Positions 505-63,670 of a stretch of DNA of 64,000 bases are shown in pieces. Made by a program: the position numbers and the translations under genes. Position 1 is the first letter of the stretch; the number at the start of each line of letters is the position of its first letter. Source of the stretch: Minisyncoccota bacterium (GTDB lineage: Bacteria > Patescibacteriota > Minisyncoccia > Phycocordibacterales > UBA918); NCBI GenBank assembly GCA_018062385.1, contig JAGOSI010000001.1:5904-69903 (forward strand), written 5' to 3'. The notes beneath the pieces are model-generated. The model was given only the letters and a program-made list of their open reading frames with translations. It had not been told where the DNA came from and ran no database searches.

Positions 505-512
505 ACAAAAAA

Positions 513-541
513 GTCACTACGCAAGTAGTGACTTTTTTGTT
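513..541 (+). terminator. Rho-independent terminator after rplB (gtcactac-gcaa-gtagtgac + T-run)
   Basis: Perfect 8-bp stem, 4-nt loop, followed by TTTTTTGTTT; unexpectedly ends the operon before rpsS. Confidence 0.7.
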
Positions 542-703
542 TAGCAAGCAACTTGAGTTGCGTGCGTATCTCTTCCCGAGTCGCAGTGATATTTTTCTTT
601 CTCAAAAAGAAAAATCACGAGACGGGGTCGCGAACACTTAGTAGATTTGGAGTCAAAAACGAACAAATATACTTAGTGATTCGTGACGAAAGCGGTAAAA
701 CAA

Positions 704-734
704 CAAAAAACCCCTTACGCAGGGGTGTTTTTTG
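704..734. terminator. Bidirectional terminator (A-run, cccct-tacgc-agggg, T-run)
   Basis: Hairpin flanked by A7 and T7 runs immediately downstream of the minus-strand gene ending at 744. Confidence 0.6.
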
Positions 735-743
735 TGACTTTTG

Positions 744-1277
744 TTACACGGTTTTCTTAATGCTGCTGGCTAACATAAAGCTAATTACTATAGGCCATAT
801 AGTGTAAATCAAAACCATTGCATAGTAATCATTATTAAGTATAAGATTGTAGATTGCAGATGGTATAAGACCTCCAACTAATAATATAAGTATTATATTA
901 AATAAAGGAATGGTTTCATTGTTTTGTTTTATAACCATTTTAAAGCCTACGGTTAATATCAGAGCGCCAATTAGACCGCCAATAAACAGGCTATGATTTT
1001 CTAATTTGGAAAATTCTCCCGAGCTATCTTGCGCGGAAATAAAAAAAGCAATCAAATAACTGATTGTACAAAATTTTAACCAAATGTATTTTGTGTTTCT
1101 TTTTGGATATTTGGCCAATATTACTTTTAGGGTAATTAGTCCATAAATAAGACCAGCTCCTAAAATTATAAGTAACATAAAACCCCCTTCAAATTCAGTT
1201 ATTAGACTTAGAATACCTGACAAAAAAGCCAAGCTAGTAAATTGTTGTCTAAAACTTAGGCTATTAAAATAACTCAT
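744..1277 (-). CDS. hypothetical integral membrane protein (multiple predicted TM helices)
   Basis: 177-aa ORF, hydrophobic segments; no recognisable family. Confidence 0.5.
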   Translation of the reverse strand: MSYFNSLSFRQQFTSLAFLSGILSLITEFEGGFMLLIILGAGLIYGLITLKVILAKYPKRNTKYIWLKFCTISYLIAFFISAQDSSGEFSKLENHSLFIGGLIGALILTVGFKMVIKQNNETIPLFNIILILLVGGLIPSAIYNLILNNDYYAMVLIYTIWPIVISFMLASSIKKTV

Positions 1278-1367
1278 TGATATTTTTGTTTAGGTGATAA
1301 AATTTTTAATTTTAGTATTGTATCATTACATTTTTTTATTAAGTATATTTAAAACTGATTTTAAATA

Positions 1368-1688
1368 TTACACCCCTGGCTTTTTCTCCCTCGTCTTAAA
1401 TTCCGTGTTGGTAAATTTCTTGTGAGTAGATAAAGCGGAGAAAATGTGCGGAGCTAAATCGGAGTTGCAATGCACGGCTACCTTTTGGATACCTTGGCCA
1501 GAAATTATCAGCTCCATGCCGGCGTTGGTAAAGCAGGCAGTAATACGGCGTTTACCACTTTGGCTTTTTCCCTGAGTGATTATTCCTGGGGAAATCATTT
1601 CTACCCCCGGAATAGTTTCCAGTATGGTGACCACGGTTTCAGCTGTTTCGGTCAAGGTGGTGTGTGTTCCACCACGTAGGTTTTTCAT
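1368..1688 (-). CDS. hypothetical protein, possibly a fragment of a Rossmann-fold (LOG/DprA-like) protein
   Basis: 106-aa ORF; motif RGGTHTTLTE weakly resembles GGxGTxxE of LOG family, but the N-terminal half is absent; alternative plus-strand ORF 1470-1679 overlaps. Confidence 0.25.
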   Translation of the reverse strand: MKNLRGGTHTTLTETAETVVTILETIPGVEMISPGIITQGKSQSGKRRITACFTNAGMELIISGQGIQKVAVHCNSDLAPHIFSALSTHKKFTNTEFKTREKKPGV

Positions 1689-1778
1689 TACTTTCAGTAT
1701 AACATTATATATAAATAGACAAATTAATTATTTTTTTTACTAATTTCATATGTTATAGTAATAAATAAGCCATATATT

Positions 1779-2303
1779 ATGCCAAATAAAGAACTTGTCG
1801 ATTACATAAATAGCTCACTTTCCGCAGGCGAATCTCCCGAAAAGATTAGAGTAAATTTGATAACTTCAGGATGGAAGGAGGAGGAAATAGATGATGTTTT
1901 AAATAAATTAGTCTCTATTTTTGATGCTAATAATCCAATAGTTGATTTTGATTTTGAGATTAAGCATGAAGTTGGTCATGAAGTTAACTCACAAAATTAT
2001 CCTAATCAAAATCAAAAAAAAGATTTGAGCCCACTTTACTATTTACTAGGGGCTCTTATTTTAGATGTTGTAGGTTTTGGAGTGTGTGCGATGGGACCAT
2101 CTGCATATATTTCACTGTTCACAATCATTTATCTTTCAGCAGCCGTGCTTGCTTTTATTAGTATTATAAAAATTAACCAAGTCGACCAAATAACAGGATT
2201 AAAAAGAAATATCTTATTAAGAATTATTATAACTATCTTAGCTCTGGCTGTAGGTGGGTGGGGTCTTTTGTGGGGTGTCTGGGGTATTGGGGGAGCGTTA
2301 TAA
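1779..2303 (+). CDS. hypothetical membrane protein with N-terminal soluble domain
   Basis: 174-aa ORF; charged N-terminus, 3-4 hydrophobic helices, Gly/Trp-rich C-terminus. Confidence 0.5.
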   Translation: MPNKELVDYINSSLSAGESPEKIRVNLITSGWKEEEIDDVLNKLVSIFDANNPIVDFDFEIKHEVGHEVNSQNYPNQNQKKDLSPLYYLLGALILDVVGFGVCAMGPSAYISLFTIIYLSAAVLAFISIIKINQVDQITGLKRNILLRIIITILALAVGGWGLLWGVWGIGGAL

Positions 2304-2312
2304 ATAGAATTC

Positions 2313-3044
2313 ATGGAAGTTATATTTCATTACGCTACTGACTTGCTGGCCACTATCATTGGTGTTCATTTATATTTACGATCTAGAAATAAGGATTTAA
2401 TTCGTGAAGAATATCGTATATATATAATCATCGGAGCTTTAATCGGAGCTTTAATTTTTAGTCGTTTGATAGCGGCTTTTGAAAATCCTGAACTTTTTCT
2501 TAATCCTCCAAATTATTTTTATTATTTTTCTGGTAAGACAATCATTGGTGGAATTGTTGGTGGTATTTTGGGTATTGAAATAGCAAAAAAAGTACTTGGA
2601 ATAAAAGTCTGGACAGGTAATCGTGCTTTGGTGCCATTAATTGTAGCAATAATAATTGGTCGGATCGGATGTTTTGTGGCTGGAGTTCAAGATGGTACAG
2701 TCGGTGGAGTTTGTAATTATTTTTGGTGTTTGGAACAGGGAGATGGATTGCTAAGGCATCCAAACTCACTTTATGAAATAACTTTTCTTTTGCTATTTCT
2801 TGTCGGCTACTATTTTGCCAAAAAATCAACTTATCCCACTATAATCTTTTTAGTTGAGACACCGGGTATAGCTTTTAGAACTTTTATTATTTTGTATTTT
2901 TCTTTGCGTTTTGGAATAGAGTTTTTAAAAGATACCAATCCAATTATTCTTGGTTTAAATAGTATTCAATTAATTTGTCTACCTTTTATTGTGTGGTACA
3001 TAAATGATTTGAGGTATAAATATTTTTCTCGCCAAGGTGTTTAA
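2313..3044 (+). CDS. lgt: prolipoprotein diacylglyceryl transferase (Lgt) family protein
   Basis: IIGRIGCFVAG(V)QDG resembles the Lgt GR(L)GNF(I)NGE signature, and LRHPNSLYE matches the Lgt HPSQLYE motif; polytopic membrane protein; 243 aa is short for Lgt. Confidence 0.6.
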   Translation: MEVIFHYATDLLATIIGVHLYLRSRNKDLIREEYRIYIIIGALIGALIFSRLIAAFENPELFLNPPNYFYYFSGKTIIGGIVGGILGIEIAKKVLGIKVWTGNRALVPLIVAIIIGRIGCFVAGVQDGTVGGVCNYFWCLEQGDGLLRHPNSLYEITFLLLFLVGYYFAKKSTYPTIIFLVETPGIAFRTFIILYFSLRFGIEFLKDTNPIILGLNSIQLICLPFIVWYINDLRYKYFSRQGV

Positions 3045-3112
3045 GTTGTGTTAGATTACCCTCGTTGTTCTTTAGTAGTTCTTTTCATAAAACTCTTTGA
3101 TAGGGGAATATA

Positions 3113-4489
3113 ATGAGTCATAATCGAGAAGTTGTAACCTCAGGGGGTGAGTGTTGTGGTAACACTTTAACCCTAGACCATTTTTGTGGTAACGGGGCAC
3201 TTTTAGTAAAAAACAAGCGTTCCAGATGTAATGAATGTTTCAGTGATGTACCAGCCGAGGTCTGGCGATCAAATGATAGTCCACCGCGTATTTATATGCG
3301 TAAGTATTGTTCAGATCATGGTGTTACCAGCTCAAGACTGTCTAGTGACGCCCAGTTCTATTTTTTACCAAAAAATGGAGAAGTTAATTGTTGTGCACCT
3401 GGTAGTGATTGTTCAACCTCTCCGCTTGGTGAAAACGCAATAACTGCTAGTCAATTACATACCTGTACTTTGGTAATTGAGATTGTGTATGATTGTAATC
3501 TGTCTTGTGAGACTTGTTATGCAAATAGTCCAAAAGCTTCTGGTGGAATAAGTAGTAATTATCTATCTTTTGATGATTTTCAGTCACAAGTATTGAGTGT
3601 TCTTGATAAGCAGGGCAAGATTGATATCCTACAACTTTCTGGAGGTGAACCAACTCTTCATCCTGAGCTAATGCGTATTTTGTCTTGGCTTAAAAATGAA
3701 CCAAGAGTTACAGATGTACTTCTAAATACCAACGGTACTCGCCTTATCGATCCGTTGTTTGTAGGTGAGCTTGCTAAAAATATCCCTCAAGGTAAATTCG
3801 GAATCTACTTGCAGTATGATGGTGATCTTGAGGCTGGACAGAATGAGTTGAGGGGAGGTGATTTTCGTTACATTAGAAGTCGAGCGATAGATAGGTGTAA
3901 AGAGGTAAATATTCCAATTGCTTTAGTAATGACAGTATCACATGATAATAAATTTGATTGCCCATCTGCACTTAATCGTGCACTTCAAGATGATCATGTG
4001 CGTTGGGTAGTATATCAACCTGAATTTATTTCCGGCAGGAACGATAAAACTAAGAAATTGGAAATCCCAATTAATGTCGCTGATGTTATTCATAGCGTGG
4101 CAAAGGGAAGTGTTATGGATTTAGGTTCATGGATGCCCTTGCCGTGTAGTCATCCGAATTGTGGCACTATAGGATTTCTTGTTCGTAAAAATGGGCAGTG
4201 GTTTCCGGTATCTGACTTTGTCGAAATGAAGCAATTTACTCCACTAATAGTAAATCGTATGAATTTTGATGTGGATGATGCGCTGGATGCTTGTGGTTGT
4301 GATAACTATAGTCTATCTGAATATCTTGAAAGGTTAGGAATTTCTAAACAGGATATAAAGATGGTTTTTATTAAGCCATTCATGGATGCAAGAACTTGGG
4401 ATACGGATCGTATCGAAGCATGTTGTACTCATGTTCTAACTCCTGAAGGCAAGGTGGATAGTTTTTGCCGTTATTACGGTAGTAAGTAG
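3113..4489 (+). CDS. radical SAM enzyme with ~120-aa Cys-rich N-terminal extension and Cys-rich C-terminal (possible auxiliary Fe-S) region
   Basis: CNLSCETCY = CxxxCxxC radical SAM motif preceded by a conserved aromatic; N-terminal region has CC, CG, CxxC and CCxxxxxC clusters; C-terminus has CSHPNC, CGC and CC....C. Confidence 0.7.
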   Translation: MSHNREVVTSGGECCGNTLTLDHFCGNGALLVKNKRSRCNECFSDVPAEVWRSNDSPPRIYMRKYCSDHGVTSSRLSSDAQFYFLPKNGEVNCCAPGSDCSTSPLGENAITASQLHTCTLVIEIVYDCNLSCETCYANSPKASGGISSNYLSFDDFQSQVLSVLDKQGKIDILQLSGGEPTLHPELMRILSWLKNEPRVTDVLLNTNGTRLIDPLFVGELAKNIPQGKFGIYLQYDGDLEAGQNELRGGDFRYIRSRAIDRCKEVNIPIALVMTVSHDNKFDCPSALNRALQDDHVRWVVYQPEFISGRNDKTKKLEIPINVADVIHSVAKGSVMDLGSWMPLPCSHPNCGTIGFLVRKNGQWFPVSDFVEMKQFTPLIVNRMNFDVDDALDACGCDNYSLSEYLERLGISKQDIKMVFIKPFMDARTWDTDRIEACCTHVLTPEGKVDSFCRYYGSK

Positions 4490-4640
4490 CGTTATTTTTA
4501 GGAAACACCAAGCATTTTTTGCTTGGTGTTTTTTGTCTCTATAAACCGCTAATTCAAAGTCTCGTGTTGGTAATTGTTTGCTAATTACTTAAAGTGGAAA
4601 TGTTATACTGGAGCATTATCTAAATTTTAATTAATTCCTT

Positions 4641-5849
4641 ATGAATGTTTTTGCCGATAATCGCTTCAGTCTAATATTTATCGTTAGTCTTTTGTCAGCT
4701 TTGTTATTTTTAGTCACCCCATCATTTTCTCAAGCCCAAGTGCCAGGAGATTGTGGCTTCACTGCTACTTTGGAGCTGGGTTCCGACAGTGAGGAGGTGC
4801 GTTGTTTGCAAAAGTATCTCAATGCCAGCGGTTTTGTAATTGCTGAGAGTGGCCCAGGTTCGGTTGGAAAGGAGACTTCTATGTTTCGAGCTCTTACTAA
4901 AGAAGCATTGATTAAATGGCAACAATCGCACAATATTACCCCGGCCACTGGCGTGTTTGGTGAAAAATCAAAAGCTACTTACTTACTTGATTTGGTTAAA
5001 AAATTAAGTAATGAACAAGGAGGTCAAAATGTGGTAGTAACAGACCCCGTACCAGATACTGAAGACACCGTCAGTGCTGATATACCCGACACTGATTCTG
5101 AGGCTAAGAATGACGCTGAGCGACAGATCACTTCTGCAATGGTAATGATCCTAGATACTTATGACGAACTAGACAATGTTCGTGATGATGATCCAGATGA
5201 GGCTGTAAATATTGAAGAAGATACACGTGAATCATTAAAGGATCTGTTAGAATCAATAAAGACTTATTTTGACGGTGACTATGACGAAGCCGGAAGTTTG
5301 GCCGAGGATGTTTTAAATGACGCTACCGATTCCTTTGAAGACGCTGGTGGAGAATCAGCTAAAAGCAAAGCTGAGGATATACTTGATGATGTTGAGGATT
5401 TCTATGATGATCTAGAAGAACTTATAGCTGATGCAGAGGATCAAAATGAAGATGTGGGCGACGCCCCAGATCTTTTAGAAGAAGCTCGAGATTTATTAGA
5501 TGAAGCTGAGGAAGCCTTTGCTGATGGTGTCTATAAGCAAGCCATCAGCGATGCTAATGACGCTGAAGATTTACTAAATGAGGCCGAAGATGAGATTGAT
5601 TTAGTGTCTGATCGTGACGCGGAGAAGTTGGTGAAGGAAGTTTGGGATCAATTTGACGAAGCGGAAGATGAATTATCTGAAGCTGAGACCAATGGTGAAG
5701 ATATTGACGAAGCGGAAGAATTACTTGATGATGCCAAGCGCAATCTAAAGAAGGCTGATATGGCGCTTGATGAAGAGGATTACTCCGAAGCCGTTGATTT
5801 GGCAGAAGAAGCCGAAGAATTGATTGAAGAAGCTTTGGATGAGCTGTAA
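4641..5849 (+). CDS. secreted protein with peptidoglycan-binding-like domain and long acidic (D/E-rich) repetitive C-terminal region
   Basis: Signal peptide ...PSFSQAQ; segment CLQKYLNASGF...GVFGEKSKATY resembles a PG_binding_1 domain; ~250 aa tail dominated by D/E with repeated EAEE/DEAE motifs. Confidence 0.6.
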   Translation: MNVFADNRFSLIFIVSLLSALLFLVTPSFSQAQVPGDCGFTATLELGSDSEEVRCLQKYLNASGFVIAESGPGSVGKETSMFRALTKEALIKWQQSHNITPATGVFGEKSKATYLLDLVKKLSNEQGGQNVVVTDPVPDTEDTVSADIPDTDSEAKNDAERQITSAMVMILDTYDELDNVRDDDPDEAVNIEEDTRESLKDLLESIKTYFDGDYDEAGSLAEDVLNDATDSFEDAGGESAKSKAEDILDDVEDFYDDLEELIADAEDQNEDVGDAPDLLEEARDLLDEAEEAFADGVYKQAISDANDAEDLLNEAEDEIDLVSDRDAEKLVKEVWDQFDEAEDELSEAETNGEDIDEAEELLDDAKRNLKKADMALDEEDYSEAVDLAEEAEELIEEALDEL

Positions 5850-5879
5850 AAAACTGAATTTAACCAAAAAATATCAGAA

Positions 5880-5916
5880 AACTGAGTTTTCCAGAGGGTA
5901 AACTCGGTTTTTTTCA
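5880..5916 (+). terminator. Rho-independent terminator after acidic-protein gene
   Basis: aactgagttt...aaactcggtt 10-bp stem (one G-U), followed by T7. Confidence 0.65.
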
Positions 5917-5937
5917 TCGGCAATATGTACGTTTTCA

Positions 5938-5966
5938 TTGACTTTTCCGTCTTTTTTCGGTACTCT
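5938..5966 (+). promoter_or_regulatory. sigma70-like promoter of rpsS sub-operon: TTGACT-N17-TACTCT
   Basis: -35 TTGACT at 5938-5943, 17-nt spacer, -10 TACTCT at 5961-5966; the module TTTTTCGGTACT(C/G)TAGC recurs upstream of rpsN at 10011-10031. Confidence 0.6.
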
Positions 5967-6154
5967 AGCCAAGTTCCAACCTCAGTGAGGAGTTAAGAAT
6001 CTATCTAAATTCTTAGTGTCACCTCACAAAAAGTTAAGAAGAAGTTGATTTATAAAGCTTTGAGAACCTCTGTTAAGGACGGCCGTTACCTTTCTTTACA
6101 AGAGGTTCTCAAAAAACGCATTATCAATGCGTTATTATTCGTATAGTTAAATGT

Positions 6155-6496
6155 ATGTCACGATCACTCTATAAAGGACCATACGTAGATGAGAAGTTGC
6201 TGAAGAAGATCGCCGGTAAAAAACCCGGAGAGAGTGTTGTCATCAAGACTTGGGCGCGCGATAGCGTAATTGCTCCGGAAATGGTTGGCTTCACGTTTGG
6301 TGTCCATAACGGTAAAGAACATATTCCAGTTTCTGTTTCTGAAGAAATGGTAGGTCACCGTTTAGGAGAATTTTCACCAACTAAGAAATTCCATCGTCAC
6401 GGAGGTAAGATGCAAAAAGAACTTGAGCAGAAGAAGAAGCAAGCTGAAATTGATGCTGCAAAAGCCGCTAAATCAGCTTCCTCTAGTAAAAAGTAG
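6155..6496 (+). CDS. rpsS: 30S ribosomal protein S19 with Lys/Ala-rich C-terminal extension
   Basis: [18 protein letters not shown]...[19 protein letters not shown] matches S19; extra C-terminal [20 protein letters not shown]. Confidence 0.95.
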
Positions 6497-6499
6497 GAT

Positions 6500-6823
6500 A
6501 TGAAAGCAATTCTAAAAAATTACCGTCAATCACCTCGTAAAGTACGTTTGGTGGCTGATGTGGTACGCGGAAAGAAAGTTACCGAAGCCCTTGCCATGCT
6601 CCGCTTTGTTGATAAGCGAGCGTCTGGTCCATTTGCTAAGGTTATCGAATCAGCTGTAGCCAATGCGGTACAAGCTGGTAAATCAACCGATCGTCTTTTT
6701 ATTAAGAAAGTAGCAGTTGATAAGGGAACGGTTTTGAAGAGATTCATGCCTCGTGCTCGCGGTTCTGCGTCACGCATTAATAAGCGAAATAGTCACATCT
6801 CAGTCGAACTCGGCGAGAAATAA
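6500..6823 (+). CDS. rplV: 50S ribosomal protein L22
   Basis: Sequence similarity to L22 (SPRKVRLVADVVRGK...); position after rpsS. Confidence 0.95.
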   Translation: MKAILKNYRQSPRKVRLVADVVRGKKVTEALAMLRFVDKRASGPFAKVIESAVANAVQAGKSTDRLFIKKVAVDKGTVLKRFMPRARGSASRINKRNSHISVELGEK

Positions 6824-6828
6824 TACCT

Positions 6829-7551
6829 ATGACACACGTAGCCCATCCATATGTTCAACGTATCGGGGTCAATCGCGATTGGAAGAGTCGTTGGTTTACT
6901 ACTGATCCAAAGAAGTTTCGTGAATATCTACGCTCTGATGCCGAAATTCGACGTCTTCTTGAGAAGAAGTTGAAAGGTATGTCAGTTGATAAGGTTGAAA
7001 TTGAACGCAACCAAAAAGATATTCGCATTATTATTAAAACTGCTCGTCCTGGACTTATTATTGGTCGTAGTGGAGAAGGAGTAATCAAGCTCAAGAAAGA
7101 GGTTGATATGTTACTTCGAACACAAAAGCTAACCAATAAACCAGAAATTAAGCTTGATATTGAAGAAGTTCGTTCTCCAGAATCAAGTGCTAACATTGTT
7201 GGACAAATGATTGCTGAAGGACTTGAGAAACGTCTCACTTTCCGTCGCGTCATGAAGCAAACGATTGAAAAAGTTATGGCCAATCGCGATGTAGAAGGAG
7301 TACGTATTATTCTTTCTGGTCGTCTTGGTGGAGCAGATATGGCACGAAAGGAGGAATTAAAGAAGGGTCGAATTCCTCTCCAAACTCTACGCGCAGATAT
7401 TGATTTTGCTCGTGTTACTGCTCGTCTACCTTATGGTGCGATTGGTATTAAGGTTTGGATTTATCGCGGACAAGTTTTTGCTGATCGTAAAAGCGGTCAA
7501 GCAGAAGCCGCTCCACGACAAAGTCAGTCTCGGGCACCTCGTAAAGGTTAA
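6829..7551 (+). CDS. rpsC: 30S ribosomal protein S3
   Basis: HPYVQRIGVNRDWKSRWF..., KH domain and conserved S3 C-terminal domain; synteny. Confidence 0.95.
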   Translation: MTHVAHPYVQRIGVNRDWKSRWFTTDPKKFREYLRSDAEIRRLLEKKLKGMSVDKVEIERNQKDIRIIIKTARPGLIIGRSGEGVIKLKKEVDMLLRTQKLTNKPEIKLDIEEVRSPESSANIVGQMIAEGLEKRLTFRRVMKQTIEKVMANRDVEGVRIILSGRLGGADMARKEELKKGRIPLQTLRADIDFARVTARLPYGAIGIKVWIYRGQVFADRKSGQAEAAPRQSQSRAPRKG

Positions 7552-7562
7552 TTAAAATACAT

Positions 7563-7997
7563 ATGTTATTTCCGAAAAAAGTAAAGCACCGTAAATGGCA
7601 AGTCGGTAGACAAAGCGAAGCTAAAAGAAACACTCCTGATACTCGAGGTATCACTGTGTCTTTTGGTACCTTTGGTCTTAAGGCGACTTCAGCATCACGT
7701 GTGCGTTCCAATCAAATTGAAGCGGCTCGTCGTGTAATCTCACGAACTATCGGCAAGACCGGAAAAATTTGGATCCGTATTTTCCCCGACAAGCCAATGA
7801 CCAAGAAAGCGGCTGAAGTACCGATGGGTAAGGGTAAAGGTGATTTGGATCATTATGTGTTTGAAGTTCATCCTGGACGTATTCTCTTTGAGGTACAAGG
7901 TGTCTCTGAAGAGGTAGCACGTGAAGCTTTTCGAAAGGCCTGCGCCAAGCTTCCATTACAAGGTAAGCTCGTTGGTCGCGAGGAAACGACAGCGTAA
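7563..7997 (+). CDS. rplP: 50S ribosomal protein L16
   Basis: [16 protein letters not shown]...; synteny. Confidence 0.95.
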
Positions 7998-8008
7998 TAT
8001 ACTTACTT

Positions 8009-8209
8009 ATGATTAAAATGTCAGACATTAGAAATAAGTCGGAAGCAGAGCTGGTTGAGTTGGTAAATACTGCTCGCGAAACAGTTCGTGCTGAACGCTT
8101 TAAAGATAAATTCAGTCGCAAGGCTGGTATCATCAATGGTGCCAAGAAGGAAATTGCTCAGGCACTAACCGAATTAACAACTCGTCGTCGTAACAATGAC
8201 GCTAAATAA
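8009..8209 (+). CDS. rpmC: 50S ribosomal protein L29 (start may be the second ATG at 8018)
   Basis: ...SEAELVELVNTARETVRAERFK...; stop TAA overlaps rpsQ start (TAATG). Confidence 0.9.
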   Translation: MIKMSDIRNKSEAELVELVNTARETVRAERFKDKFSRKAGIINGAKKEIAQALTELTTRRRNNDAK

Positions 8210-8475
8210 TGAGTATGACTACTGAAAATACAACAACTGTATCAAATCGTCGTACCTTGCGTGGAACTGTAGTTTCAACCAAAATGCAAGACACTATAAC
8301 GGTAGCTGTCGAGCGTTATGTGAAGCATCCAAAATACAAGAAGTTCATGCGACGCACGAAGAAGTTTTTGGTACATGATGCAGGTAATACTGCGAAAGAA
8401 GGAGATGTGGTCGATATTAAGGAATCACGCCCGTTGTCAAAACGAAAGCGTTTCGAACTTGTAAAGACAAAATAG
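8209..8475 (+). CDS. rpsQ: 30S ribosomal protein S17
   Basis: ...RRTLRGTVVSTKMQDTITVAVER...; synteny. Confidence 0.95.
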   Translation: MSMTTENTTTVSNRRTLRGTVVSTKMQDTITVAVERYVKHPKYKKFMRRTKKFLVHDAGNTAKEGDVVDIKESRPLSKRKRFELVKTK

Positions 8476-8476
8476 T

Positions 8477-8848
8477 ATGATCCAGCCACAAACAATTGTT
8501 AAGATCACTGATAACTCTGGCGGTAAGATCGGTCGAGTATTTAAAGTACTTGGTGGATCAAAAAAGCGCTATGCAGAATTAGGTGAAGTCGTGGTGCTTT
8601 CAGTACAAGTTGCTGAGCCACGAAAGCAGATCAAGAAGAAAGATGTTGTGTACGGAGTGATTGTGCGTCAGCGCAAGCCTTTCCGTCGAAAGGATGGTTC
8701 ATACGTAAGTTTTGATGATAACGCCGTTGTTATTATCGACAAGGTAAAGAAGGAGCCTCGCGCTAACCGCGTGTTTGGTCCGATTCCTCGTGAACTATCA
8801 GAAGCTGGTTATCAGAAAATAGTCTCTCTAGCACCAGAGGTGGTATAA
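8477..8848 (+). CDS. rplN: 50S ribosomal protein L14
   Basis: MIQPQTIVKITDNSGGK...; synteny. Confidence 0.95.
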   Translation: MIQPQTIVKITDNSGGKIGRVFKVLGGSKKRYAELGEVVVLSVQVAEPRKQIKKKDVVYGVIVRQRKPFRRKDGSYVSFDDNAVVIIDKVKKEPRANRVFGPIPRELSEAGYQKIVSLAPEVV

Positions 8849-8869
8849 AGAGTCGTTAATGATATAGCT

Positions 8870-9181
8870 ATGAAAATTAGAAAAGGAGATACCGTGCAGA
8901 TCATTGCCGGAAAAGATAAAGGTAAGACAGGATCAGTTTTGACTGCCTTGCCAAGAACCGAACAAGTAATTATCGAAGGAATGAATGTGGTGAAGAAGCA
9001 CCAAAAGAATCGTCGCACTCGTTCACAAGGTCAAATTATCGAAAAAAGTTTACCAATCCACGTATCTAATGTTGCTTTACTAGAAGGCGACAAGCCAGTA
9101 CGTGTGGGATACAGCATTGAAGGTGAGGGTGAGAAACGAAAGAAAGTGCGTGTTGCCCGCCCAAGCGGTAAGAAACTATAA
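8870..9181 (+). CDS. rplX: 50S ribosomal protein L24
   Basis: MKIRKGDTVQIIAGKDKGKTG... KOW motif; synteny. Confidence 0.95.
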   Translation: MKIRKGDTVQIIAGKDKGKTGSVLTALPRTEQVIIEGMNVVKKHQKNRRTRSQGQIIEKSLPIHVSNVALLEGDKPVRVGYSIEGEGEKRKKVRVARPSGKKL

Positions 9182-9182
9182 T

Positions 9183-9719
9183 ATGGAAACAACACAAACT
9201 CGCATCAAAAATGCCTATGGCGCTATGAAGACAGACTTTGGTTATACCAATGTCATGCAAGCTCCAAGAGTAGAAAAGGTAGTGGTATCAGTGGGTACTG
9301 GCCGTGTTCAGGACAAAGCGAAAATTGCTTTAATCCAAGATCGTCTAGCTCAAATCACTGGTCAAAAACCATCACCGCGACCAGCGAAGCAATCAATTGC
9401 TTCATTCAAGCTACGTGAGGGTGATATCATTGGTTACCAAATAACTCTACGTGGTGCTCGCATGATGCACTTCCTAGATAAGTTGATCAACCTAGCTTTG
9501 CCACAAACTCGCGACTTCCGCGGACTAAAGGTAACAGCGATTGATGAAATGGGTAACTACACTATTGGTATTAAGGAACATACGATTTTCCCAGAGTGTG
9601 GTGACGAAGAAATCAGAGACGTTTTTTCATTAGCGATTACGATTGTAACTACCGCTAGTGACAAGAAAGAGGCCGAAGCTTTCTTGCGTCATATTGGTTT
9701 ACCTTTGCAAAACAAATAA
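9183..9719 (+). CDS. rplE: 50S ribosomal protein L5 (start at METTQTRIKNAY; the listed ORF begins at an upstream in-frame ATG inside rplX)
   Basis: L5 signature sequence; ATG at 9183 directly after the rplX stop. Confidence 0.9.
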   Translation: METTQTRIKNAYGAMKTDFGYTNVMQAPRVEKVVVSVGTGRVQDKAKIALIQDRLAQITGQKPSPRPAKQSIASFKLREGDIIGYQITLRGARMMHFLDKLINLALPQTRDFRGLKVTAIDEMGNYTIGIKEHTIFPECGDEEIRDVFSLAITIVTTASDKKEAEAFLRHIGLPLQNK

Positions 9720-9743
9720 TTGATTGTAAGAGAAATAATAAAA

Positions 9744-9775
9744 CCCCCGAAAAACTTCGTTTTTCGGGGGTTTTT
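9744..9775 (+). terminator. Rho-independent terminator after rplE (cccccgaaaaac-ttc-gtttttcggggg + T5)
   Basis: 12-bp perfect stem and T-run; separates rplE from rpsN, which are normally co-transcribed. Confidence 0.75.
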
Positions 9776-9998
9776 GAAGTGTGATTAAATTTAATATTTT
9801 CTGTCAGTTTTATAAAATTTTCCGATTAATCCCATTACAAAAAATAAAAGTACTAACAGAAGTAACCAAAATGGAGCCAAAATCATATCTTTCACTATAA
9901 ATTCCTCCTAATTTAAAAATAAATCATAATCTCTACTTGTGTATCTATAATTATAATGACATTTTTTAAAGTTTTGTCCACAGACACCTATTAGTAGG

Positions 9999-10027
9999 TT
10001 GACTTTATCCTTATTTTTCGGTACTGT
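9999..10027 (+). promoter_or_regulatory. sigma70-like promoter of rpsN-secY sub-operon: TTGACT-N17-TACTGT
   Basis: -35 TTGACT 9999-10004, 17-nt spacer, -10 TACTGT 10022-10027; near-identical to the promoter at 5938-5966. Confidence 0.6.
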
Positions 10028-10156
10028 AGCGGGCAAGGCGACATTATAGGTCACCAACAAAAAACCTATAGTTCGCTGCCCAGTCTTTGACTCGGCGATT
10101 ATCAGGGGGTAAGTCACGACAAACTACGTGATACTATCCCATAAACAAACACAAAA

Positions 10157-10342
10157 GTGGCACGAAAATCAGTAAAGCTTCGCGCGATGCGCGAACCAAA
10201 GTTTGCTTGCCAAGTCGTAAGACGATGTAAGCTGTGTGGCCGAAAGCGAGGATATATGCGAGATTTTGATACTTGCCGTATCTGTTTCCGCGAGTTGGCC
10301 CACGAAGGACATATACCAGGAGTTAAGAAATCATCATGGTAG
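10157..10342 (+). CDS. rpsN: 30S ribosomal protein S14 type Z (zinc-binding, 61 aa), GTG start
   Basis: [16 protein letters not shown]...[38 protein letters not shown] with CxxC...CxxC. Confidence 0.95.
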
Positions 10343-10734
10343 GAGATATTATTGGCGACATGATCATTCGACTGAAGAACGCTGGAGTAGTAGGCAAGAA
10401 ACAAGTAGAAATGCCATATTCTAAGCTTCGTCATGCAGTCGCGAACAAGTTAGTCGCAGCCGGATATATTGAAAAGGCCGAGCAACAAGGGAAGAAAGAT
10501 AAGGTACAGAAGTTACTAGTGGTAACTCTAAAGTATGAGAACGGACGACATCGAATTGATGGCGTAAAGCGTATCTCAAAACCAGGTCGCCGCTTGTACA
10601 CAAAGGTCGCAGATATTCACAGAGTTAAGTTTGGTAAAGGGCATATGCTACTTTCTACACCAGCTGGCATCCTCACAAACGAGGAAGCTAAAGCGCAAAA
10701 TGTAGGAGGTGAACAGCTCTTCATCATTTGGTAA
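10336..10734 (+). CDS. rpsH: 30S ribosomal protein S8
   Basis: Conserved S8 sequence; 7-nt overlap with rpsN. Confidence 0.95.
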
Positions 10735-10738
10735 AAGT

Positions 10739-11269
10739 ATGAGTCGATTAGGAAAACAACCAGTAACCATTCCAACCGGAGTCACAGTCACATGTGATGG
10801 TGGATTACTAAAGGTGACGGGACCAAAAGGAACTCTAGAGAAGCCAGTCCGACCAGATGTAAATATTGCTATTGACGGCAATACTATTACTTTGACACCA
10901 AATAAGACGGTTAATGCACCAGCTTTGTGGGGAACCTACGCTGCTCACGTGCGTAATATGATCAAAGGTGTAACTGAAGGCTTTGTTAAGATCCTAGAAA
11001 TCGAAGGTGTAGGATACCGCGCTGAAGTAAAGGGAAGTGAGATTGTTCTAAATATGGGCTACTCACATCCAGTACCACTAGCAATTCCAGCTGGAATTAC
11101 TGCTTTGGTAGAAAAAAGTGTCGTCACTCTTAGTGGTATCGATAAAGAGCTTTTGGGTCAGTTTGCAGCAAATGTACGCAAGGTACGCAAGCCAGAACCA
11201 TACAAAGGTAAGGGTATTCGTTATCGTGGAGAGTTTATTATTCGCAAACAAGGTAAGAAGGCTGCGTAA
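10739..11269 (+). CDS. rplF: 50S ribosomal protein L6 (start at MSRLGKQPVTIP)
   Basis: L6 N-terminus MSRxGKxP.TIP; ORF track begins 30 nt upstream at an in-frame ATG overlapping rpsH. Confidence 0.9.
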   Translation: MSRLGKQPVTIPTGVTVTCDGGLLKVTGPKGTLEKPVRPDVNIAIDGNTITLTPNKTVNAPALWGTYAAHVRNMIKGVTEGFVKILEIEGVGYRAEVKGSEIVLNMGYSHPVPLAIPAGITALVEKSVVTLSGIDKELLGQFAANVRKVRKPEPYKGKGIRYRGEFIIRKQGKKAA

Positions 11270-11290
11270 GCCCATAATTCGATTTGATAT

Positions 11291-11641
11291 ATGGAAAAAA
11301 CACAGTATAAAACAAGTAAGCGAGTATCTCGCCATAATCGGATTAGGGCTAAGGTGTCGGGTACGGCAGAACGCCCACGCCTAGCTATCTTCCGCAGTAA
11401 CCGCTTTGTCTACGCCCAGCTAATAGACGACGTTACTGGTAAGACACTAGCAGCTTCTGATTCACGTAAGGTTGAAGGTAAGACTTTGACTGAACGCGCT
11501 CAGGCGGTTGGTACAGATATTGCTAGTAAGGCTAAAACTATCGGTGTCAATACTATTGTATTTGACCGTGGTGGTTTTCGTTACCAAGGAGCCGTGGCAG
11601 CGCTAGCTGATAGTGCTCGAACTGGAGGCTTGGTATTCTAA
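11291..11641 (+). CDS. rplR: 50S ribosomal protein L18
   Basis: ...RPRLAIFRSNRFVYAQLIDD...FDRGGFRYQGAVAALADSARTGGLVF. Confidence 0.95.
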   Translation: MEKTQYKTSKRVSRHNRIRAKVSGTAERPRLAIFRSNRFVYAQLIDDVTGKTLAASDSRKVEGKTLTERAQAVGTDIASKAKTIGVNTIVFDRGGFRYQGAVAALADSARTGGLVF

Positions 11642-11692
11642 ATTAATAAACGAAAGTATTGCTAAATTCATTACTTTCATAAGAAAAAAATA

Positions 11693-12310
11693 ATGTCAGA
11701 AACAAAACAGCAGGAAGCTACAACTGGCGCTACGCCAGAGCTTGAGGTGAAAACCTCTACCGATGCACCCGCTGTCGCTGGTTCAGAAAGAACTGAACGC
11801 GGTCGACGGGGACAAGGAGGAGCAGACAAAAGAAATCAACGTCGTCCACGACGTGGCGCTGGTCGTCCAGAACGCGCACGTCCAGAATTTGACCAAAAAA
11901 TCATTAGTATTCGTCGCGTAACTCGTGTTATGGCTGGAGGTCGTCGTTTCAGTTTCTCAGTAGCGATGGTGATTGGTGATAAGAAAGGAAAGGTGGGAGT
12001 TGGTATTGGAAAAGCTGGTGATACTCAAGCCGCAATCGAAAAAGCGATTCGTGATGCTAAGAAGAACATGATTATCGTACCAATGGACAAGGAGAGCCGT
12101 ATTCCACACGATGTACATACAAAGTATGTTTCAAGTGAGGTAATGATTATGCCGGCACCTGGTCGTGGACTAGTAGCAGGATCTTCAGTACGTACCGTTC
12201 TTGAACACGCTGGTGTGAAGGATGTGACTGCCAAAATCTTCTCACGTAGTAAGAACAAACTTAACAATGCTCGCGCCGCTGTCGAAGCGCTTAAACTTCT
12301 AAGGAAATAA
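11693..12310 (+). CDS. rpsE: 30S ribosomal protein S5 with Arg/Gly-rich N-terminal extension
   Basis: S5 dsRBD and C-terminal domain (...IISIRRVTRVMAGGRRFSF...); ~60-aa basic N-terminal extension. Confidence 0.95.
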   Translation: MSETKQQEATTGATPELEVKTSTDAPAVAGSERTERGRRGQGGADKRNQRRPRRGAGRPERARPEFDQKIISIRRVTRVMAGGRRFSFSVAMVIGDKKGKVGVGIGKAGDTQAAIEKAIRDAKKNMIIVPMDKESRIPHDVHTKYVSSEVMIMPAPGRGLVAGSSVRTVLEHAGVKDVTAKIFSRSKNKLNNARAAVEALKLLRK

Positions 12311-12315
12311 TTAGT

Positions 12316-12768
12316 ATGCAGTTACATGAACTAAAACCAACTTCTCCAAGAAAGACCGCCAAAAGAATCGGTCTTGGTGGAAAGCGTGGTAAGACTTCTG
12401 GTCGTGGAGGAAAGGGTCAGACCGCTCGTACTGGTAACAGTATGCGTCCAGAAATGCGCGACCAGATCAAGAAGCTTCCAAAGCTTCGTGGGCACGGTAA
12501 AAATCGCGCTCGCACTGTAAATAGTGAAAGAGAAGAAATCGCTGTAGTAAATCTATCTCGTTTAGAGACAGTATTTAACGCTGGTGATACAGTGTCTCCA
12601 AAGACTCTGGTGGCAAATAAGGTCATCAGTGCAGTAGGTAGACGTGTACCAAAGGTAAAGATCTTAGCTACAGGAGAAATCACTAAGAAATTAACTATTG
12701 AAAACTGTCAGATGTCAGAGACAGCTAAGGCAAAAATCGAAAAAGCTGGTGGAATTGTTACAAAATAG
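12316..12768 (+). CDS. rplO: 50S ribosomal protein L15 (directly follows rpsE; no L30 gene)
   Basis: MQLHELKPTSPRKTAKRIGLGGKRGKTSGRGGKGQ... Confidence 0.95.
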   Translation: MQLHELKPTSPRKTAKRIGLGGKRGKTSGRGGKGQTARTGNSMRPEMRDQIKKLPKLRGHGKNRARTVNSEREEIAVVNLSRLETVFNAGDTVSPKTLVANKVISAVGRRVPKVKILATGEITKKLTIENCQMSETAKAKIEKAGGIVTK

Positions 12769-12783
12769 GTACTATAGTAATGT

Positions 12784-14055
12784 ATGCAAAAATTCTTCCG
12801 CAAACTTACTCTAGTCTTCACCGAACCGGCGATTAGAAATCGAGTCTTATTTATCCTTGGAGCACTGGTCATTTTTAGAATGCTAGCGTCAATTCCGATT
12901 CCAGGAGTTGATCAAGCGGTTTTGCAACAATTTTTTGCCAACAACCAATTCCTAGGATTACTCAACATCTTCTCTGGTGGTGGATTGGCCAACTTGTCAA
13001 TCGTAATGCTTGGTGTAGGGCCGTTTATTACAGCGGCTATCATCATGCAGTTGATGACGGTGATGTCACCAAAAATCAAGAGTATGCACACTGAGGAGGG
13101 TGAAGCTGGACGTGCAAAGTTTACTCAAATCAGCCGACTTTTGACTTTACCTTTGGCTGTTCTACAAGGTTTTGGCTTCCTAACTCTTCTACAGAGTCAG
13201 GGGGTTATCTCTGGACTTTCTACCTTTGATTTCGTAGTTAATGTGATCTTGGTGGTAGCTGGTTCTATGCTCCTTATGTGGATCGGTGAATTAATCACCG
13301 AATACGGTATCGGGAACGGTGTTTCAATTATCATCTTTGCTGGTATCGTAGCAACTTTGCCATCGACCGTTAGTCAATTGGCTTTTACTTTTGATCCGTC
13401 ACAATTACCATTGTATATAGGATTCGGCTTTGTTGCCCTCTTCATTATTTATGCGGTGGTATTCATGACTGAAGCTGAGCGTCCGGTACCGATTACTTAC
13501 GCCAAACAAAGTCGAGGAGGAGCAACTTATGGAGGTAGTTCTTCATACTTACCACTTCGTCTCAATCAGGCTGGAGTGATTCCGATCATCTTCGCGCTAT
13601 CGATCTTGCTCTTCCCGCAAATGGTGCTAAACATTCTTTCAGCCTTCAATTTGTCTTGGGTGGCAGGAGCTAATGAGACAGTGACTTCTATCCTTAACAA
13701 TCAGCTGATCTACGGTGCTATCTACTTTGTCTTGGTTTTCCTATTCACTTTCTTCTATACTGCAGTAACTTTCGACCCAGAGAATGTGGCTAAGAACTTA
13801 CAAAGAAATGGTGCTTATATCCCCGGTATTCGTCCAGGTAACCATACTTCAGAATATCTTGGTGGTTTGATCACTCGTTTAACTCTTGTTGGTGCTATCT
13901 TCCTTGGCTTTGTAGCAGTGTTACCGATTGGTATGCAAATGGCAACCGGTATTGCAGCTCTAGCGATTGGGGGTACAGCGGTGTTGATTGTGGTGCAGGT
14001 AGTTCTAGACTTGATTCGTCGACTTGATGCTCAGATATCACTTCGAGAGTACTAG
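12784..14055 (+). CDS. secY: preprotein translocase subunit SecY
   Basis: 10-TM protein with SecY motifs; follows rplO. Confidence 0.95.
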   Translation: MQKFFRKLTLVFTEPAIRNRVLFILGALVIFRMLASIPIPGVDQAVLQQFFANNQFLGLLNIFSGGGLANLSIVMLGVGPFITAAIIMQLMTVMSPKIKSMHTEEGEAGRAKFTQISRLLTLPLAVLQGFGFLTLLQSQGVISGLSTFDFVVNVILVVAGSMLLMWIGELITEYGIGNGVSIIIFAGIVATLPSTVSQLAFTFDPSQLPLYIGFGFVALFIIYAVVFMTEAERPVPITYAKQSRGGATYGGSSSYLPLRLNQAGVIPIIFALSILLFPQMVLNILSAFNLSWVAGANETVTSILNNQLIYGAIYFVLVFLFTFFYTAVTFDPENVAKNLQRNGAYIPGIRPGNHTSEYLGGLITRLTLVGAIFLGFVAVLPIGMQMATGIAALAIGGTAVLIVVQVVLDLIRRLDAQISLREY

Positions 14056-14070
14056 AGGTACATTGAAAAC

Positions 14071-14120
14071 AAAAAGCCAGAAAAAACCAGTCCCTAGGGA
14101 CTGGTTTTTCTGGCTTTTTG
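14071..14120. terminator. Bidirectional terminator between secY (+) and cmk-like gene (-)
   Basis: Long perfect palindrome gccagaaaaaaccagtccc-tag-ggactggtttttctggc flanked by A- and T-runs. Confidence 0.75.
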
Positions 14121-14126
14121 TTTCCT

Positions 14127-55262: not shown

Positions 55263-55318
55263 TTTTCATCCACAGCTTTAGGTTCGCTACTAAGTTTGAA
55301 AATCGGTATAATCTTGTT

Positions 55319-56598: not shown

Positions 56599-56607
56599 TT
56601 ATATTGT

Positions 56608-56937: not shown

Positions 56938-56946
56938 ATCTAAGCT

Positions 56947-59134: not shown

Positions 59135-59143
59135 TTTTTTAAT

Positions 59144-60211: not shown

Positions 60212-60221
60212 ATTTTAAAAT

Positions 60222-61439: not shown

Positions 61440-61448
61440 AGGTAAAAC

Positions 61449-63668: not shown

Positions 63669-63670
63669 TT

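Follow-up and report, generated by a model that had tools for sequence, protein, structure and literature searches.

An Lgt paralog, a Tes-like radical SAM protein and small cysteine-containing membrane proteins as a candidate lipid module in a Minisyncoccota bacterium

Described relatives and the locus in the window

Among enzymes of known structure, the radical S-adenosylmethionine (SAM) protein described here most closely resembles GDGT-MAS, the tetraether/macrocyclic archaeol synthase MJ0619 of M. jannaschii (PDB 7TOL/7TOM; Lloyd et al.). It is encoded by an open reading frame (ORF) at 3113-4489 of the + strand in a 64,000-nucleotide stretch of DNA from a Minisyncoccota bacterium, a member of the candidate phyla radiation (CPR). 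This stretch, which comprises positions 5,904 to 69,903 of contig JAGOSI010000001.1 in assembly GCA_018062385.1, is called the window hereafter. The gene is preceded by those for a paralog of Lgt (2313-3044) and for a small membrane protein (1779-2303). The reading that we favor, and to which we give an even chance, is that these three genes form one membrane-glycerolipid module, probably for dedicated protein lipidation together with lipid-tail remodelling.

GDGT-MAS possesses a rubredoxin-type iron site (C9-x2-C12-x20-C33-x2-H36), an N-terminal auxiliary cluster, [4Fe-4S]N, with a His besides C73, C77, and C80, the radical SAM cluster, and a C-terminal cluster, [4Fe-4S]C, with a labile Met439 (Lloyd et al.). 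The archaeal enzyme abstracts hydrogen at the carbon that terminates a lipid tail, and C-C bond formation proceeds via an auxiliary-cluster sulfur intermediate (Lloyd et al.). Bacterial Tes homologues are described in passages of PMC8941075 and PMC11868695 as candidates for the synthesis of brGDGTs (branched glycerol dialkyl glycerol tetraethers) without a demonstrated function. They serve as genomic indicators of possible brGDGT producers, and brGDGTs underpin palaeoclimate proxies. Mss of Thermotoga, likewise a radical SAM enzyme, couples lipid tails and is, in passages of PMC13159169 and PMC13459092, a functional analogue of Tes. Different from the Tes homologues, however, Mss is only remotely related to Tes by its description in a passage of PMC13159169, and no Lgt linkage is reported for it there. 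TrsS, another relative, is only listed as a selenoprotein in the literature.

In E. coli Lgt, Y26, H103, R143, N146, G154, and R239 are essential, and Y235, R239, E243, and R246 are phospholipid head-group binding and gating residues (PMC13251419). Distant Lgts with N146C and with E151C or D are on record, a Leptospira Lgt with N146C complements only partially, and the second Lgt homologue of M. smegmatis, MSMEG_5408, is credited with a 'presumed low Lgt activity' (PMC13251419).

The features of the locus in the window are as follows.

1779..2303, + strand: small membrane protein of 174 amino acids (aa), candidate for both the third component and the acceptor substrate, with 9 bp between its end and the Lgt-like gene
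2070..2087, + strand: VGFGVC motif of the small protein (aa 98-103), preceded by KK and located at the outer end of its first predicted transmembrane (TM) helix, with the lipobox-like Cys103
2313..3044, + strand: Lgt paralog of 243 aa with seven TM helices, recognized by Pfam LGT and by its fold
2661..2672, + strand: GRIGC signature (R117-C120), corresponding to R143...N146 of E. coli Lgt with Asn replaced by Cys
2895..2930, + strand: Y195-x3-R199-x3-E203-x2-K206, corresponding to Y235, R239, E243, and R246 of E. coli Lgt
3113..4489, + strand: Tes/GDGT-MAS-family radical SAM enzyme of 458 aa, recognized by PDB and NCBIfam matches and by its fold
3152..3187, + strand: extra N-terminal CC-x9-C (C14, C15, C25), found in close CPR relatives only
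3209..3340, + strand: rubredoxin-like zinc ribbon (C39, C42, C66, H69), recognized by Pfam PF23545 and the alignment to GDGT-MAS
3389..3466, + strand: N-terminal auxiliary-cluster region (C93/C94, C100, C118), at the position of the [4Fe-4S]N motif of GDGT-MAS
3494..3517, + strand: radical SAM CxxxCxxC (C128, C132, C135), recognized by Pfam PF04055, with the SAM-binding motif GGEP at aa 177-180
4145..4468, + strand: C-terminal cluster domain with seven invariant Cys and K421, recognized by the alignment to GDGT-MAS

A Tes/GDGT-MAS architecture in the radical SAM protein

The ORF at 3113-4489 starts with ATG downstream of a purine-rich AGGGG that resembles a ribosome-binding site. The encoded protein matches Pfam Radical_SAM (PF04055) at residues 123-275 (41.7 bits, gathering score 29.5), which places it in this superfamily, and Zn_ribbon_HMPTM (PF23545, the HMPTM N-terminal zinc ribbon) at residues 33-76 (38 bits versus 27). 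Its best and only informative sequence match in PDB was 7tol (E 1e-27), with three aligned stretches including the C-terminal CC...C. The AlphaFold2 model of the protein (predicted local distance difference test, pLDDT, 88.6; predicted template modelling score, pTM, 0.90) matched 7TOL over its full length in a Foldseek search (E 1.6e-25, TM-score on the query, TMq, 0.73, 488 columns), and 7TOL/7TOM were the sole full-length matches. The next match was SkfB with a TM-score of 0.39. SkfB, SuiB, and anSME (0.31-0.39) aligned with the radical SAM core only, and the matches other than 7TOL/7TOM, which also included viperin and MoaA, covered this core at most (TMq <=0.42).

Similar to GDGT-MAS, the zinc ribbon, the N-terminal auxiliary region, the radical SAM core and the C-terminal CC...C domain follow one another in the same order, and the predicted model is consistent with the overall four-domain fold. 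C39-x2-C42-x23-C66-x2-H69 of the window protein aligns to C9/C12/C33/H36 of GDGT-MAS, and C350, C437/C438, and C452 align with cysteines of the GDGT-MAS C-terminal domain. Different from GDGT-MAS, however, the window protein comes from a bacterium of the CPR and is only about 23% identical to the archaeal enzyme. Where GDGT-MAS has the CxxxCxxC and His of [4Fe-4S]N, the alignment places a putative counterpart of different spacing, CC-x5-C (C93, C94, C100), with the invariant C118; the AlphaFold2 model has low pLDDT (62-69) in this region. Moreover, the labile Met439 aligns to the invariant Lys421, and the invariant C345, C394, and C396 are additional. The NCBIfam Tes model (NF045702) was matched at residues 36-346 only, with 137.1 bits versus a cut-off of 450. 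The best NCBIfam match, over the full length, was TrsS (NF045646; residues 35-455 versus 3-430 of the 441 profile positions, E 4e-47). Its 160.7 bits, however, were below the cut-off of 490, and the window ORF contains neither selenocysteine nor an in-frame UGA. The relatives P0080, P0109 and others scored 144-217 bits on the TrsS profile, and none of the members tested from the related groups reached the cut-off of Tes or of TrsS. With high confidence, the window protein has the Tes/GDGT-MAS architecture.

Of the 22 cysteines in the protein, fourteen (C39, C42, C66, C118, C128, C132, C135, C345, C350, C394, C396, C437, C438, and C452) were invariant among 106 homologues. Thus, the cysteine pattern is under selection and did not arise by chance. 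C100 (103/106), C94 (87/106), and also C262 were nearly invariant, and the position equivalent to residue 69 of the zinc ribbon was His or Cys in 102 of the 106. The CC-x9-C at the N-terminus (C14, C15, C25), which lies in a stretch with His23 and DHFCGNG and is predicted with a pLDDT of 82-93, was confined to the close CPR relatives. It was lacking in the clade of about 43% identity and replaced by WCGCG in the group of about 49% identity. This cluster may form an additional, fifth metal site.

A profile search of 1.84 billion representative proteins returned 520 clusters at E <= 1e-30. The close homologues (60-74% identity) were all from CPR bacteria, with the names Paceibacterota, Kaiserbacteria, and Saccharibacteria metagenome-assembled genomes (MAGs), the window itself looking like part of a CPR/Paceibacteria-type genome, and the group of about 49% identity was CPR-like in the one locus examined (L005). 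Homologues of about 41-43% identity were from Verrucomicrobiota, Planctomycetota, Bdellovibrionota, and Oligoflexia. More Tes-like proteins, with identities of 26-29%, were found in Hymenobacter, Flavobacteriaceae, Bradyrhizobium, Cohnella, Brevibacillus, Ktedonosporobacter, cyanobacteria, and Acidobacteriota. Only the clade of CPR, Verrucomicrobiota, and Planctomycetota had the CGC motif and Lys421; the distant clades had Met, Val, Thr, or His at the position of Lys421. Judged from these alignments, the window protein is in a distinct clade of CPR, Verrucomicrobiota, Planctomycetota, and Bdellovibrionota. It belongs to the same superfamily as the bacterial Tes homologues of Zeng et al. (2022), of which those from Hymenobacter, Bradyrhizobium, Cohnella, Ktedonosporobacter, and Acidobacteriota are likewise linked to an Lgt paralog. 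The window clade is, however, more divergent, being 26-29% identical to them and having its own CGC/K421 signature.

These results bear on an earlier sequence-only reading of this DNA. As that reading had it, the radical SAM motif CNLSCETC (C128/C132/C135) lies about 125 residues into the protein and within the PF04055 match. All of the cysteine clusters that it had named are present: CCGN (C14/C15), FCGNG (C25), CNEC (C39/C42), YCSDHG (C66), and CCAPGSDC (C93/C94/C100) at the N-terminus, and CSHPNC (C345/C350), CGC (C394/C396), and CC...C (C437/C438/C452) at the C-terminus. Ten cysteines, not the 13 that it had counted, precede the radical SAM motif. Its suggestion that the terminal clusters belong to metal-binding or Fe-S domains is borne out as far as the zinc ribbon and the C-terminal CC...C can be aligned with GDGT-MAS, and the structure prediction that it had called for gave the predicted full-length match to 7TOL. 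The alternatives that it had listed fared worse. For a SPASM/twitch-like C-terminus, no Pfam SPASM domain was detected, and the NCBIfam SPASM/twitch families matched the radical SAM core only (residues about 117-330). The B12-binding domain for which it had proposed a search had no Pfam or NCBIfam match in the protein. The N-terminal domain, for which a fused substrate had been considered, is a structural domain that the enzyme family conserves. We are highly confident that the cysteine-rich extension represents the scaffold that binds the cofactors in the Tes architecture and is neither a SPASM/twitch domain nor a fused substrate.

The Lgt paralog, its linkage and the small membrane proteins

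The relation of the neighboring protein to Lgt was established via Pfam, via alignment to the E. coli Lgt sequence verified against 5AZB, and via the fold. The Lgt-family gene that the sequence-only reading had placed beside the radical SAM gene is indeed a member of this superfamily, with a match to Pfam LGT (PF01790) at E 1.7e-19 and 70.6 bits versus a gathering score of 24.9. It is well below the cut-off for canonical Lgt, with 28.8 bits versus 334 for NCBIfam Lgt (NF000778) and no TIGR00544 among its matches; partners from other phyla reached 41.8 and 47.3 bits on TIGR00544 versus a cut-off of 118.9. A PDB sequence search with the protein gave no direct match. The sole PDB fold match of its AlphaFold2 model (pLDDT 94.9) was E. 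coli Lgt 5AZB, with a probability of 1.00 and a TMq of 0.63.

When 63 partner proteins were aligned with E. coli Lgt, the paralogs were found to keep G142, R143, G145, G154, P197, E202, Y235, R239, and E243 (as E or D). R143 and R239 were present in 63/63, Y235 in 62/63, E or D at E243 in 63/63 and R or K at R246 in 63/63. Of the residues kept, R143, G154, Y235, R239, and E243 are those by which Lgt binds phospholipid. Different from E. coli Lgt, N146 is Cys in 62 of the 63 paralogs; H103 is never His, Tyr, or Trp and is replaced by an aliphatic residue, Thr, or Glu (Ile in the window); E151 is mostly Cys, Leu, or Val; and Y26 is either retained or replaced by His (as H6 in the window). In addition, the periplasmic head is shortened, arm-1 is absent and the partner of the paralog is a radical SAM protein. 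Thus, of the six residues essential in E. coli Lgt, the window protein keeps R143, G154, and R239 and carries N146C, H103I, and Y26H. MSMEG_5408 combines Y26H and N146C in the same way as H6 and C120 of the window protein, and on these alignments the latter belongs to the unexplained N146C paralog class. By the positive-inside rule, the paralog would share the topology of Lgt, with its R117/C120/R199 site facing outward.

The association between the two genes was evaluated in 80 genomic loci encoding relatives of the radical SAM protein and in further context look-ups, which together gave 89 non-duplicate loci; six-frame ORFs were searched with a hidden Markov model (HMM) built from the Lgt-like neighbors. 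An Lgt-like gene was found in the flank of the radical SAM gene in 70 of the 89 loci. In 52 of these 70 it was <=150 bp away or overlapping, and the two genes were on the same strand in all but one. Many of the loci where no Lgt-like gene was found were short contigs or contig ends. The linked loci included ones from CPR, Verrucomicrobiota, Planctomycetota, Bdellovibrionota, Bacteroidota, Pseudomonadota, Bacillota, Cyanobacteriota, Chloroflexota, and Acidobacteriota. The Lgt-like gene comes first in CPR, Bacteroidota, Pseudomonadota, Bacillota, and cyanobacteria and second in Verrucomicrobiota and Planctomycetota. The genes around the pair were entirely different from locus to locus, and the Lgt-like gene (69 loci) was the sole widely shared neighbor in an all-against-all clustering. 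The reverse test, started from three Lgt-like proteins (those of Maribacter, of a genome of 8.9 Mb and of Crinalium PCC 9333), revealed a gene with Zn_ribbon_HMPTM and Radical_SAM domains adjacent or within <=3 kb in 3/3. Moreover, two proteins, P0382 with 671 and P0415 with 733 aa, are predicted fusions in which an N-terminal LGT domain is followed by Zn_ribbon_HMPTM and Radical_SAM. This order fits the topology, because the C-terminus of Lgt is cytoplasmic; the arrangement puts the radical SAM domain on the cytoplasmic face, beside that C-terminus. We are highly confident of a functional coupling between the radical SAM protein and the Lgt paralog. Given that no archaeal Lgt homologues are identified in the passages of PMC12462473 on this point, the linkage would have no archaeal counterpart.

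Six other proteins with long matches (P0361, P0437, P0483, P0493, P0501, and P0417) were rejected as fusions, as they had no Pfam LGT match at E <= 0.001. Low-complexity sequence makes up what P0361 and P0437 have in addition, and P0483 carries DUF5714.

The affinities of the two window proteins differ. When 2313-4489 of the window was compared with seven other loci (L088, L049, L055, L090, L006, L007, and L012), the Lgt paralog was 44, 38, and 33% identical to the Bacteroidota, Bacillota, and cyanobacterial types, respectively, versus 29-31% to the Verrucomicrobiota/Oligoflexia type. The radical SAM protein showed the opposite, with 41-43% identity to the Verrucomicrobiota/Oligoflexia type versus 26-29% to the others, and the gene order in the window follows the Bacteroidota type. 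This incongruence suggests partner swapping or very unequal rates.

Some of the linked loci had features of their own. Locus L006 contained two Lgt-like copies near the radical SAM gene (5438-5917 and 6735-7445 (-)), one of them truncated (159 aa), as well as two small Cys proteins on the strand opposite to the radical SAM gene, the only divergent arrangement seen. The Lgt-like protein of L062 (JBLNEP010000039.1), a contig labelled as an Actinomycetota MAG, was 70-77% identical to proteins of Kamptonema, Fischerella, and Calothrix, and is thus cyanobacterial by identity, so the label of the contig or bin is probably wrong. An FA_hydroxylase-family membrane enzyme (5493-6248) lies between the radical SAM gene and three tandem small Cys proteins in the CPR locus L091, and an LRAT-domain protein (3436-4905) is upstream of the pair in the Crinalium locus L090. 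Each of these is a single-locus hint at lipid chemistry. Upstream of the pair in L005 (3926-6040) are an APH/choline-kinase-like gene and an NTP_transferase gene, again lipid-related neighbors in one locus only.

Besides the pair, most lineages had small ORFs of about 60-200 aa with 2-3 predicted helices, which preceded, separated or followed the two genes and often came in 2-4 tandem copies. The one in the window, 1779-2303, carries a cytoplasmic 'GW.EE.I' domain at its N-terminus, three predicted TM helices and the motif KK...VGFGVC. Homologues of it also lie beside the pair at 1626-2021 of L008 (E 8e-14) and in L092, and L001 contains two (9458-9976, E 5e-10; 9989-10894, E 2e-10). The GFGxC motif was present in 10/10 CPR small proteins and in many of those from Bacteroidota. 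Variants were LGIC in Flavobacteriia, LLPGLC in Alphaproteobacteria, and [GA]C in Verrucomicrobiota, and LLN[GAS][GAS]C was invariant in a family common to cyanobacteria, Bacillota, and Acidobacteriota.

For counting, the motif was defined as a Cys that follows 14 residues with a mean hydropathy >= 1.4, has G, A, S, or P as one of the two residues before it (position -1 or -2), and lies 12-32 residues downstream of a K or R. By this rule, 71 of 87 small ORFs adjacent to the pair were positive, versus a mean of 13.9 and a maximum of 22 in 200 composition-preserving shuffles, 16 for the reversed sequences, and 3/22 for distant small TM ORFs. The motif occurred 0.38 times per TM helix in the small ORFs and 0.098 times in other membrane proteins of the same loci. 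With the K/R rule dropped, the density of K and R was 0.135 per residue upstream of the Cys helix versus 0.060 downstream. Position -2 was Gly in 43/76, position -1 was often L, I, or V, and 58 of the 76 small proteins ended <=21 residues after the Cys (typically 4-21). Lipoprotein precursors have the lipobox [LVI][ASTVI][GAS]C after an n-region and an h-region; in the small proteins, K/R is followed by a hydrophobic helix and G-x-C or [GA]-C, and this element is located internally or at the C-terminus instead of forming an N-terminal signal peptide. Judged from sequence, their layout would be that of a lipoprotein signal peptide with its lipobox, that is, a predicted N-in/C-out helix with the Cys near its outer end. 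We have moderate confidence in counting the small Cys proteins as a part of the system.

The remark of the sequence-only reading that a precursor-peptide ORF is not evident nearby is doubtful, since this recurrent class includes 1779-2303, located 9 bp ahead of the Lgt-like gene. Of the two neighbors whose recurrence that reading had proposed to survey, the Lgt-like gene recurred, whereas the peptidoglycan-binding protein was not conserved in related loci.

Arrays of 3-4 tandem small Cys paralogs were observed in L019 (8321-10065), L049 (8369-9032), L052 (8368-9090), and L091 (6287-7470), and the four copies in L019 each start with MLEQPPERS. A C-terminal His was present in 9 of the 58 short tails, and some of the small proteins had the endings ..GGFH, ..NFH, or ..GMH. 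The NCBIfam model NF058595 is named 'lipo-invert putative C-terminal anchoring domain', so the concept of C-terminal anchoring has already been named by curators. Among 20 small proteins scanned, one (L074 8557-8835) matched this model at 14 bits (E 0.048), below the cut-off of 37, and no match was found in the other 19, ORF 1779-2303 included. Matches of the small proteins to the 'MIGRI' family were likewise below threshold.

The module lies within a ribosomal protein cluster, between rplB and rpsS. In the window these two genes (for L2 and S19) are split by about 5.6 kb of unrelated genes (505-6154), in which the three-gene module is included. The same interruption was present in L001, the locus of a 74%-identical relative (3734-14454), with a block that is larger and partly different, and in L002 the module is located elsewhere, next to a Peptidase_M3 gene. 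A promoter scan gave 19 promoter-like sites versus 19.4 expected, and no terminator-like site was detected on the + strand of 1779-4489. The product of the ORF at 4641-5849 (+) looks secreted; it has a single PG_binding_1 domain and then, over about 280 residues, extremely acidic (D/E-rich) helical repeats that match DUF4398. The ORF at 1368-1688 (-; 106 aa) only just reaches the threshold for DUF2103, 'predicted metal-binding protein' (22.5 bits versus 22.4); L001 has an ORF of equal length at 5746-6066 (-), and none was found beside the pair in other lineages. Both of these ORFs and the TM ORF at 744-1277 were rejected as conserved partners, being absent from the neighbors shared by the related loci. 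Farther away, the ORFs at 54192-64000 are presumably a type IV pilus-like cluster, to judge by eye from their N-termini alone. By eye, too, we take them to include a PilM-like start, ATPase-like ORFs, a polytopic protein, pilin-like FTLIELLVV N-termini, and a prepilin-peptidase-like ORF. These ORFs are unconnected with the module.

Proposed protein lipidation with tail remodelling and its alternatives

The Lgt paralog and the Cys-containing small proteins, occurring together with the radical SAM protein, point to an undescribed lipid or protein-lipidation pathway. In the mechanism that we propose, the Lgt paralog would move diacylglyceryl, or a related lipid, from a phospholipid to the Cys of the small protein on the outer side of the membrane. 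On the cytoplasmic side, the Tes-like radical SAM enzyme would use a 5'-deoxyadenosyl radical to abstract hydrogen from the terminus of a lipid tail, and an auxiliary cluster would then mediate formation of a C-C (or C-S) bond in the fashion of GDGT-MAS. The tails could be cross-linked with one another inside the anchor, or with a lipid in the opposite leaflet, resulting in a cross-linked or membrane-spanning anchor. Lipidation and cross-linking could occur in either order. CPR bacteria are not expected to make their own lipids and are regarded as dependent on host lipid. In a CPR host, the module would remodel scavenged lipid. That such a system is widespread in bacteria, with the Lgt paralog lipidating an internal or C-terminal Cys of small, often multi-copy membrane proteins and the Tes-like enzyme stitching the tails, is possible, and we put it forward tentatively.

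Several points weigh against a lipidation module. With the Lgt site facing outward and the radical SAM protein in the cytoplasm, the two enzymes cannot act on one atom simultaneously; given active sites on opposite sides, their coupling must run through the lipid or a membrane-spanning substrate. The N146C replacement also fits ordinary Lgt activity, as in Leptospira, and the window Lgt could thus be the only Lgt of the genome. Passages of PMC8941075 and PMC11868695 describe bacterial Tes homologues as being without biochemical evidence, and the P0382 and P0415 fusions are proteins predicted from assemblies. The small proteins pose further difficulties. An iterative HMM search with them stalled at 10 proteins from 7 loci and detected no single homologous family, and no Pfam or NCBIfam family was matched by them, ORF 1779-2303 included. 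About one third of the loci had no small ORF by our criteria, of which a relaxed search regained about ten. The motif is short, and the rule for it was framed after examples had been seen. Finally, the Cys of ORF 1779-2303 lies in the first of three helices, far from the C-terminus, with about 70 residues after it.

Another explanation, which we regard as somewhat unlikely although it fares best among the alternatives, is that the radical SAM protein is a bacterial synthase of membrane-spanning lipids that acts on bulk phospholipid, coupling it tail to tail to yield lipids of the diabolic-acid or brGDGT type. The Lgt paralog would then be a helper that presents or transfers lipid, and the small proteins would be anchors or regulators rather than substrates. 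The full-length Tes/GDGT-MAS architecture and fold, the phosphatidylglycerol-binding residues retained by the Lgt paralog and the presence of the module in Acidobacteriota (Bryobacterales, Chloracidobacterium) are all consistent with this explanation, which is also the published hypothesis for bacterial Tes homologues (PMC8941075). However, Tes homologues are missing from most known bacterial producers of membrane-spanning lipids, and were detected in only 3 of 14 acidobacteria producing iso-diabolic acid, according to passages of Sahonero-Canavesi et al. (PMC13159169). Bulk-lipid synthesis also leaves the near-invariant lipobox-like Cys and the tandem copies of the small proteins unexplained. 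Many of the carriers, such as Flavobacteriia, Bradyrhizobium, and cyanobacteria, are not known as producers of membrane-spanning lipids, which likewise weighs against it.

It is also conceivable, albeit improbable, that the small proteins are precursors similar to those of ribosomally synthesized and post-translationally modified peptides (RiPPs). Their Cys or tail would be modified by the radical SAM protein, for instance through a thioether to a lipid or residue, the Lgt paralog would be a membrane scaffold or add the lipid, and cleavage might later release a short lipopeptide. Tandem multi-copy small ORFs next to a radical SAM gene, a Cys that is typically 4-21 residues from the C-terminus (58/76), and common tail endings such as GGFH/FH would all be expected of precursors, and the chemistry of Tes proceeds via a carbon-sulfur intermediate. 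The radical SAM protein, however, has no SPASM/twitch or RiPP-recognition domain, the predicted topology sets the Cys across the membrane from the cytoplasmic enzyme, no protease or exporter is conserved in the neighborhood, and the window small protein extends for about 70 residues after its Cys. This topology and the lack of conserved recognition, protease or export genes make RiPP-like processing the less likely.

That an unrelated housekeeping or cofactor radical SAM enzyme (a pterin dimethyltransferase, or one similar to MoaA/NirJ) lies by chance beside a normal lgt is highly improbable: some database names do read '7,8-dihydro-6-hydroxymethylpterin dimethyltransferase', NCBIfam gave weak, core-only matches to MoaA and NirJ, and no second Lgt was detected within the 64-kb window, but chance neighborhood is excluded by a linkage kept in at least 10 phyla, in two gene orders, in differing contexts and in predicted fusions, the Lgt partner is of the distinct N146C paralog class, and the name of pterin methyltransferase (HMPTM) was rejected here, given that Lloyd et al. 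failed to corroborate that assignment for MJ0619 and showed lipid chemistry instead.

Taken as a whole, the sequence-only reading was right in seeing metal or Fe-S domains, and its remarks on SPASM, a fused substrate and a missing precursor are not supported. It had also held that the function cannot be assigned from sequence; the family and a conserved set of partners can be assigned, whereas the chemistry itself remains inferred.

A term search of Zeng et al. (2022; PMC8941075) found no mention of Lgt or of gene neighborhood, and Lgt linkage is not reported in passages of PMC13159169, PMC11868695, and related papers on Tes and Mss. Searches of the literature on TrsS, on lipo-invert, and on Lgt combined with tetraether or radical SAM returned no description of a linkage between Lgt and a Tes homologue or radical SAM protein. 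Thus, the enzymes are from known superfamilies, and the three-component system as such appears to be undescribed.

The obligate-looking partnership with an Lgt paralog and Cys-containing proteins offers a testable alternative for the bacterial Tes homologues, namely protein-linked lipid chemistry, and the linkage identifies cultivable carrier organisms in which it can be tested. If the lipidation reading is true, it would yield either a lipid anchor, macrocyclic or membrane-spanning and linked to protein, or, once cleaved, ribosomally encoded lipopeptides of a new class. The role of 'bacterial Tes homologues' would then be redefined and their value as markers of brGDGT producers weakened. The same reading offers a possible role for the unexplained 'second Lgt' class with Y26H/N146C. 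In the CPR, the activity would be among the few recognizable ones for lipid remodelling.

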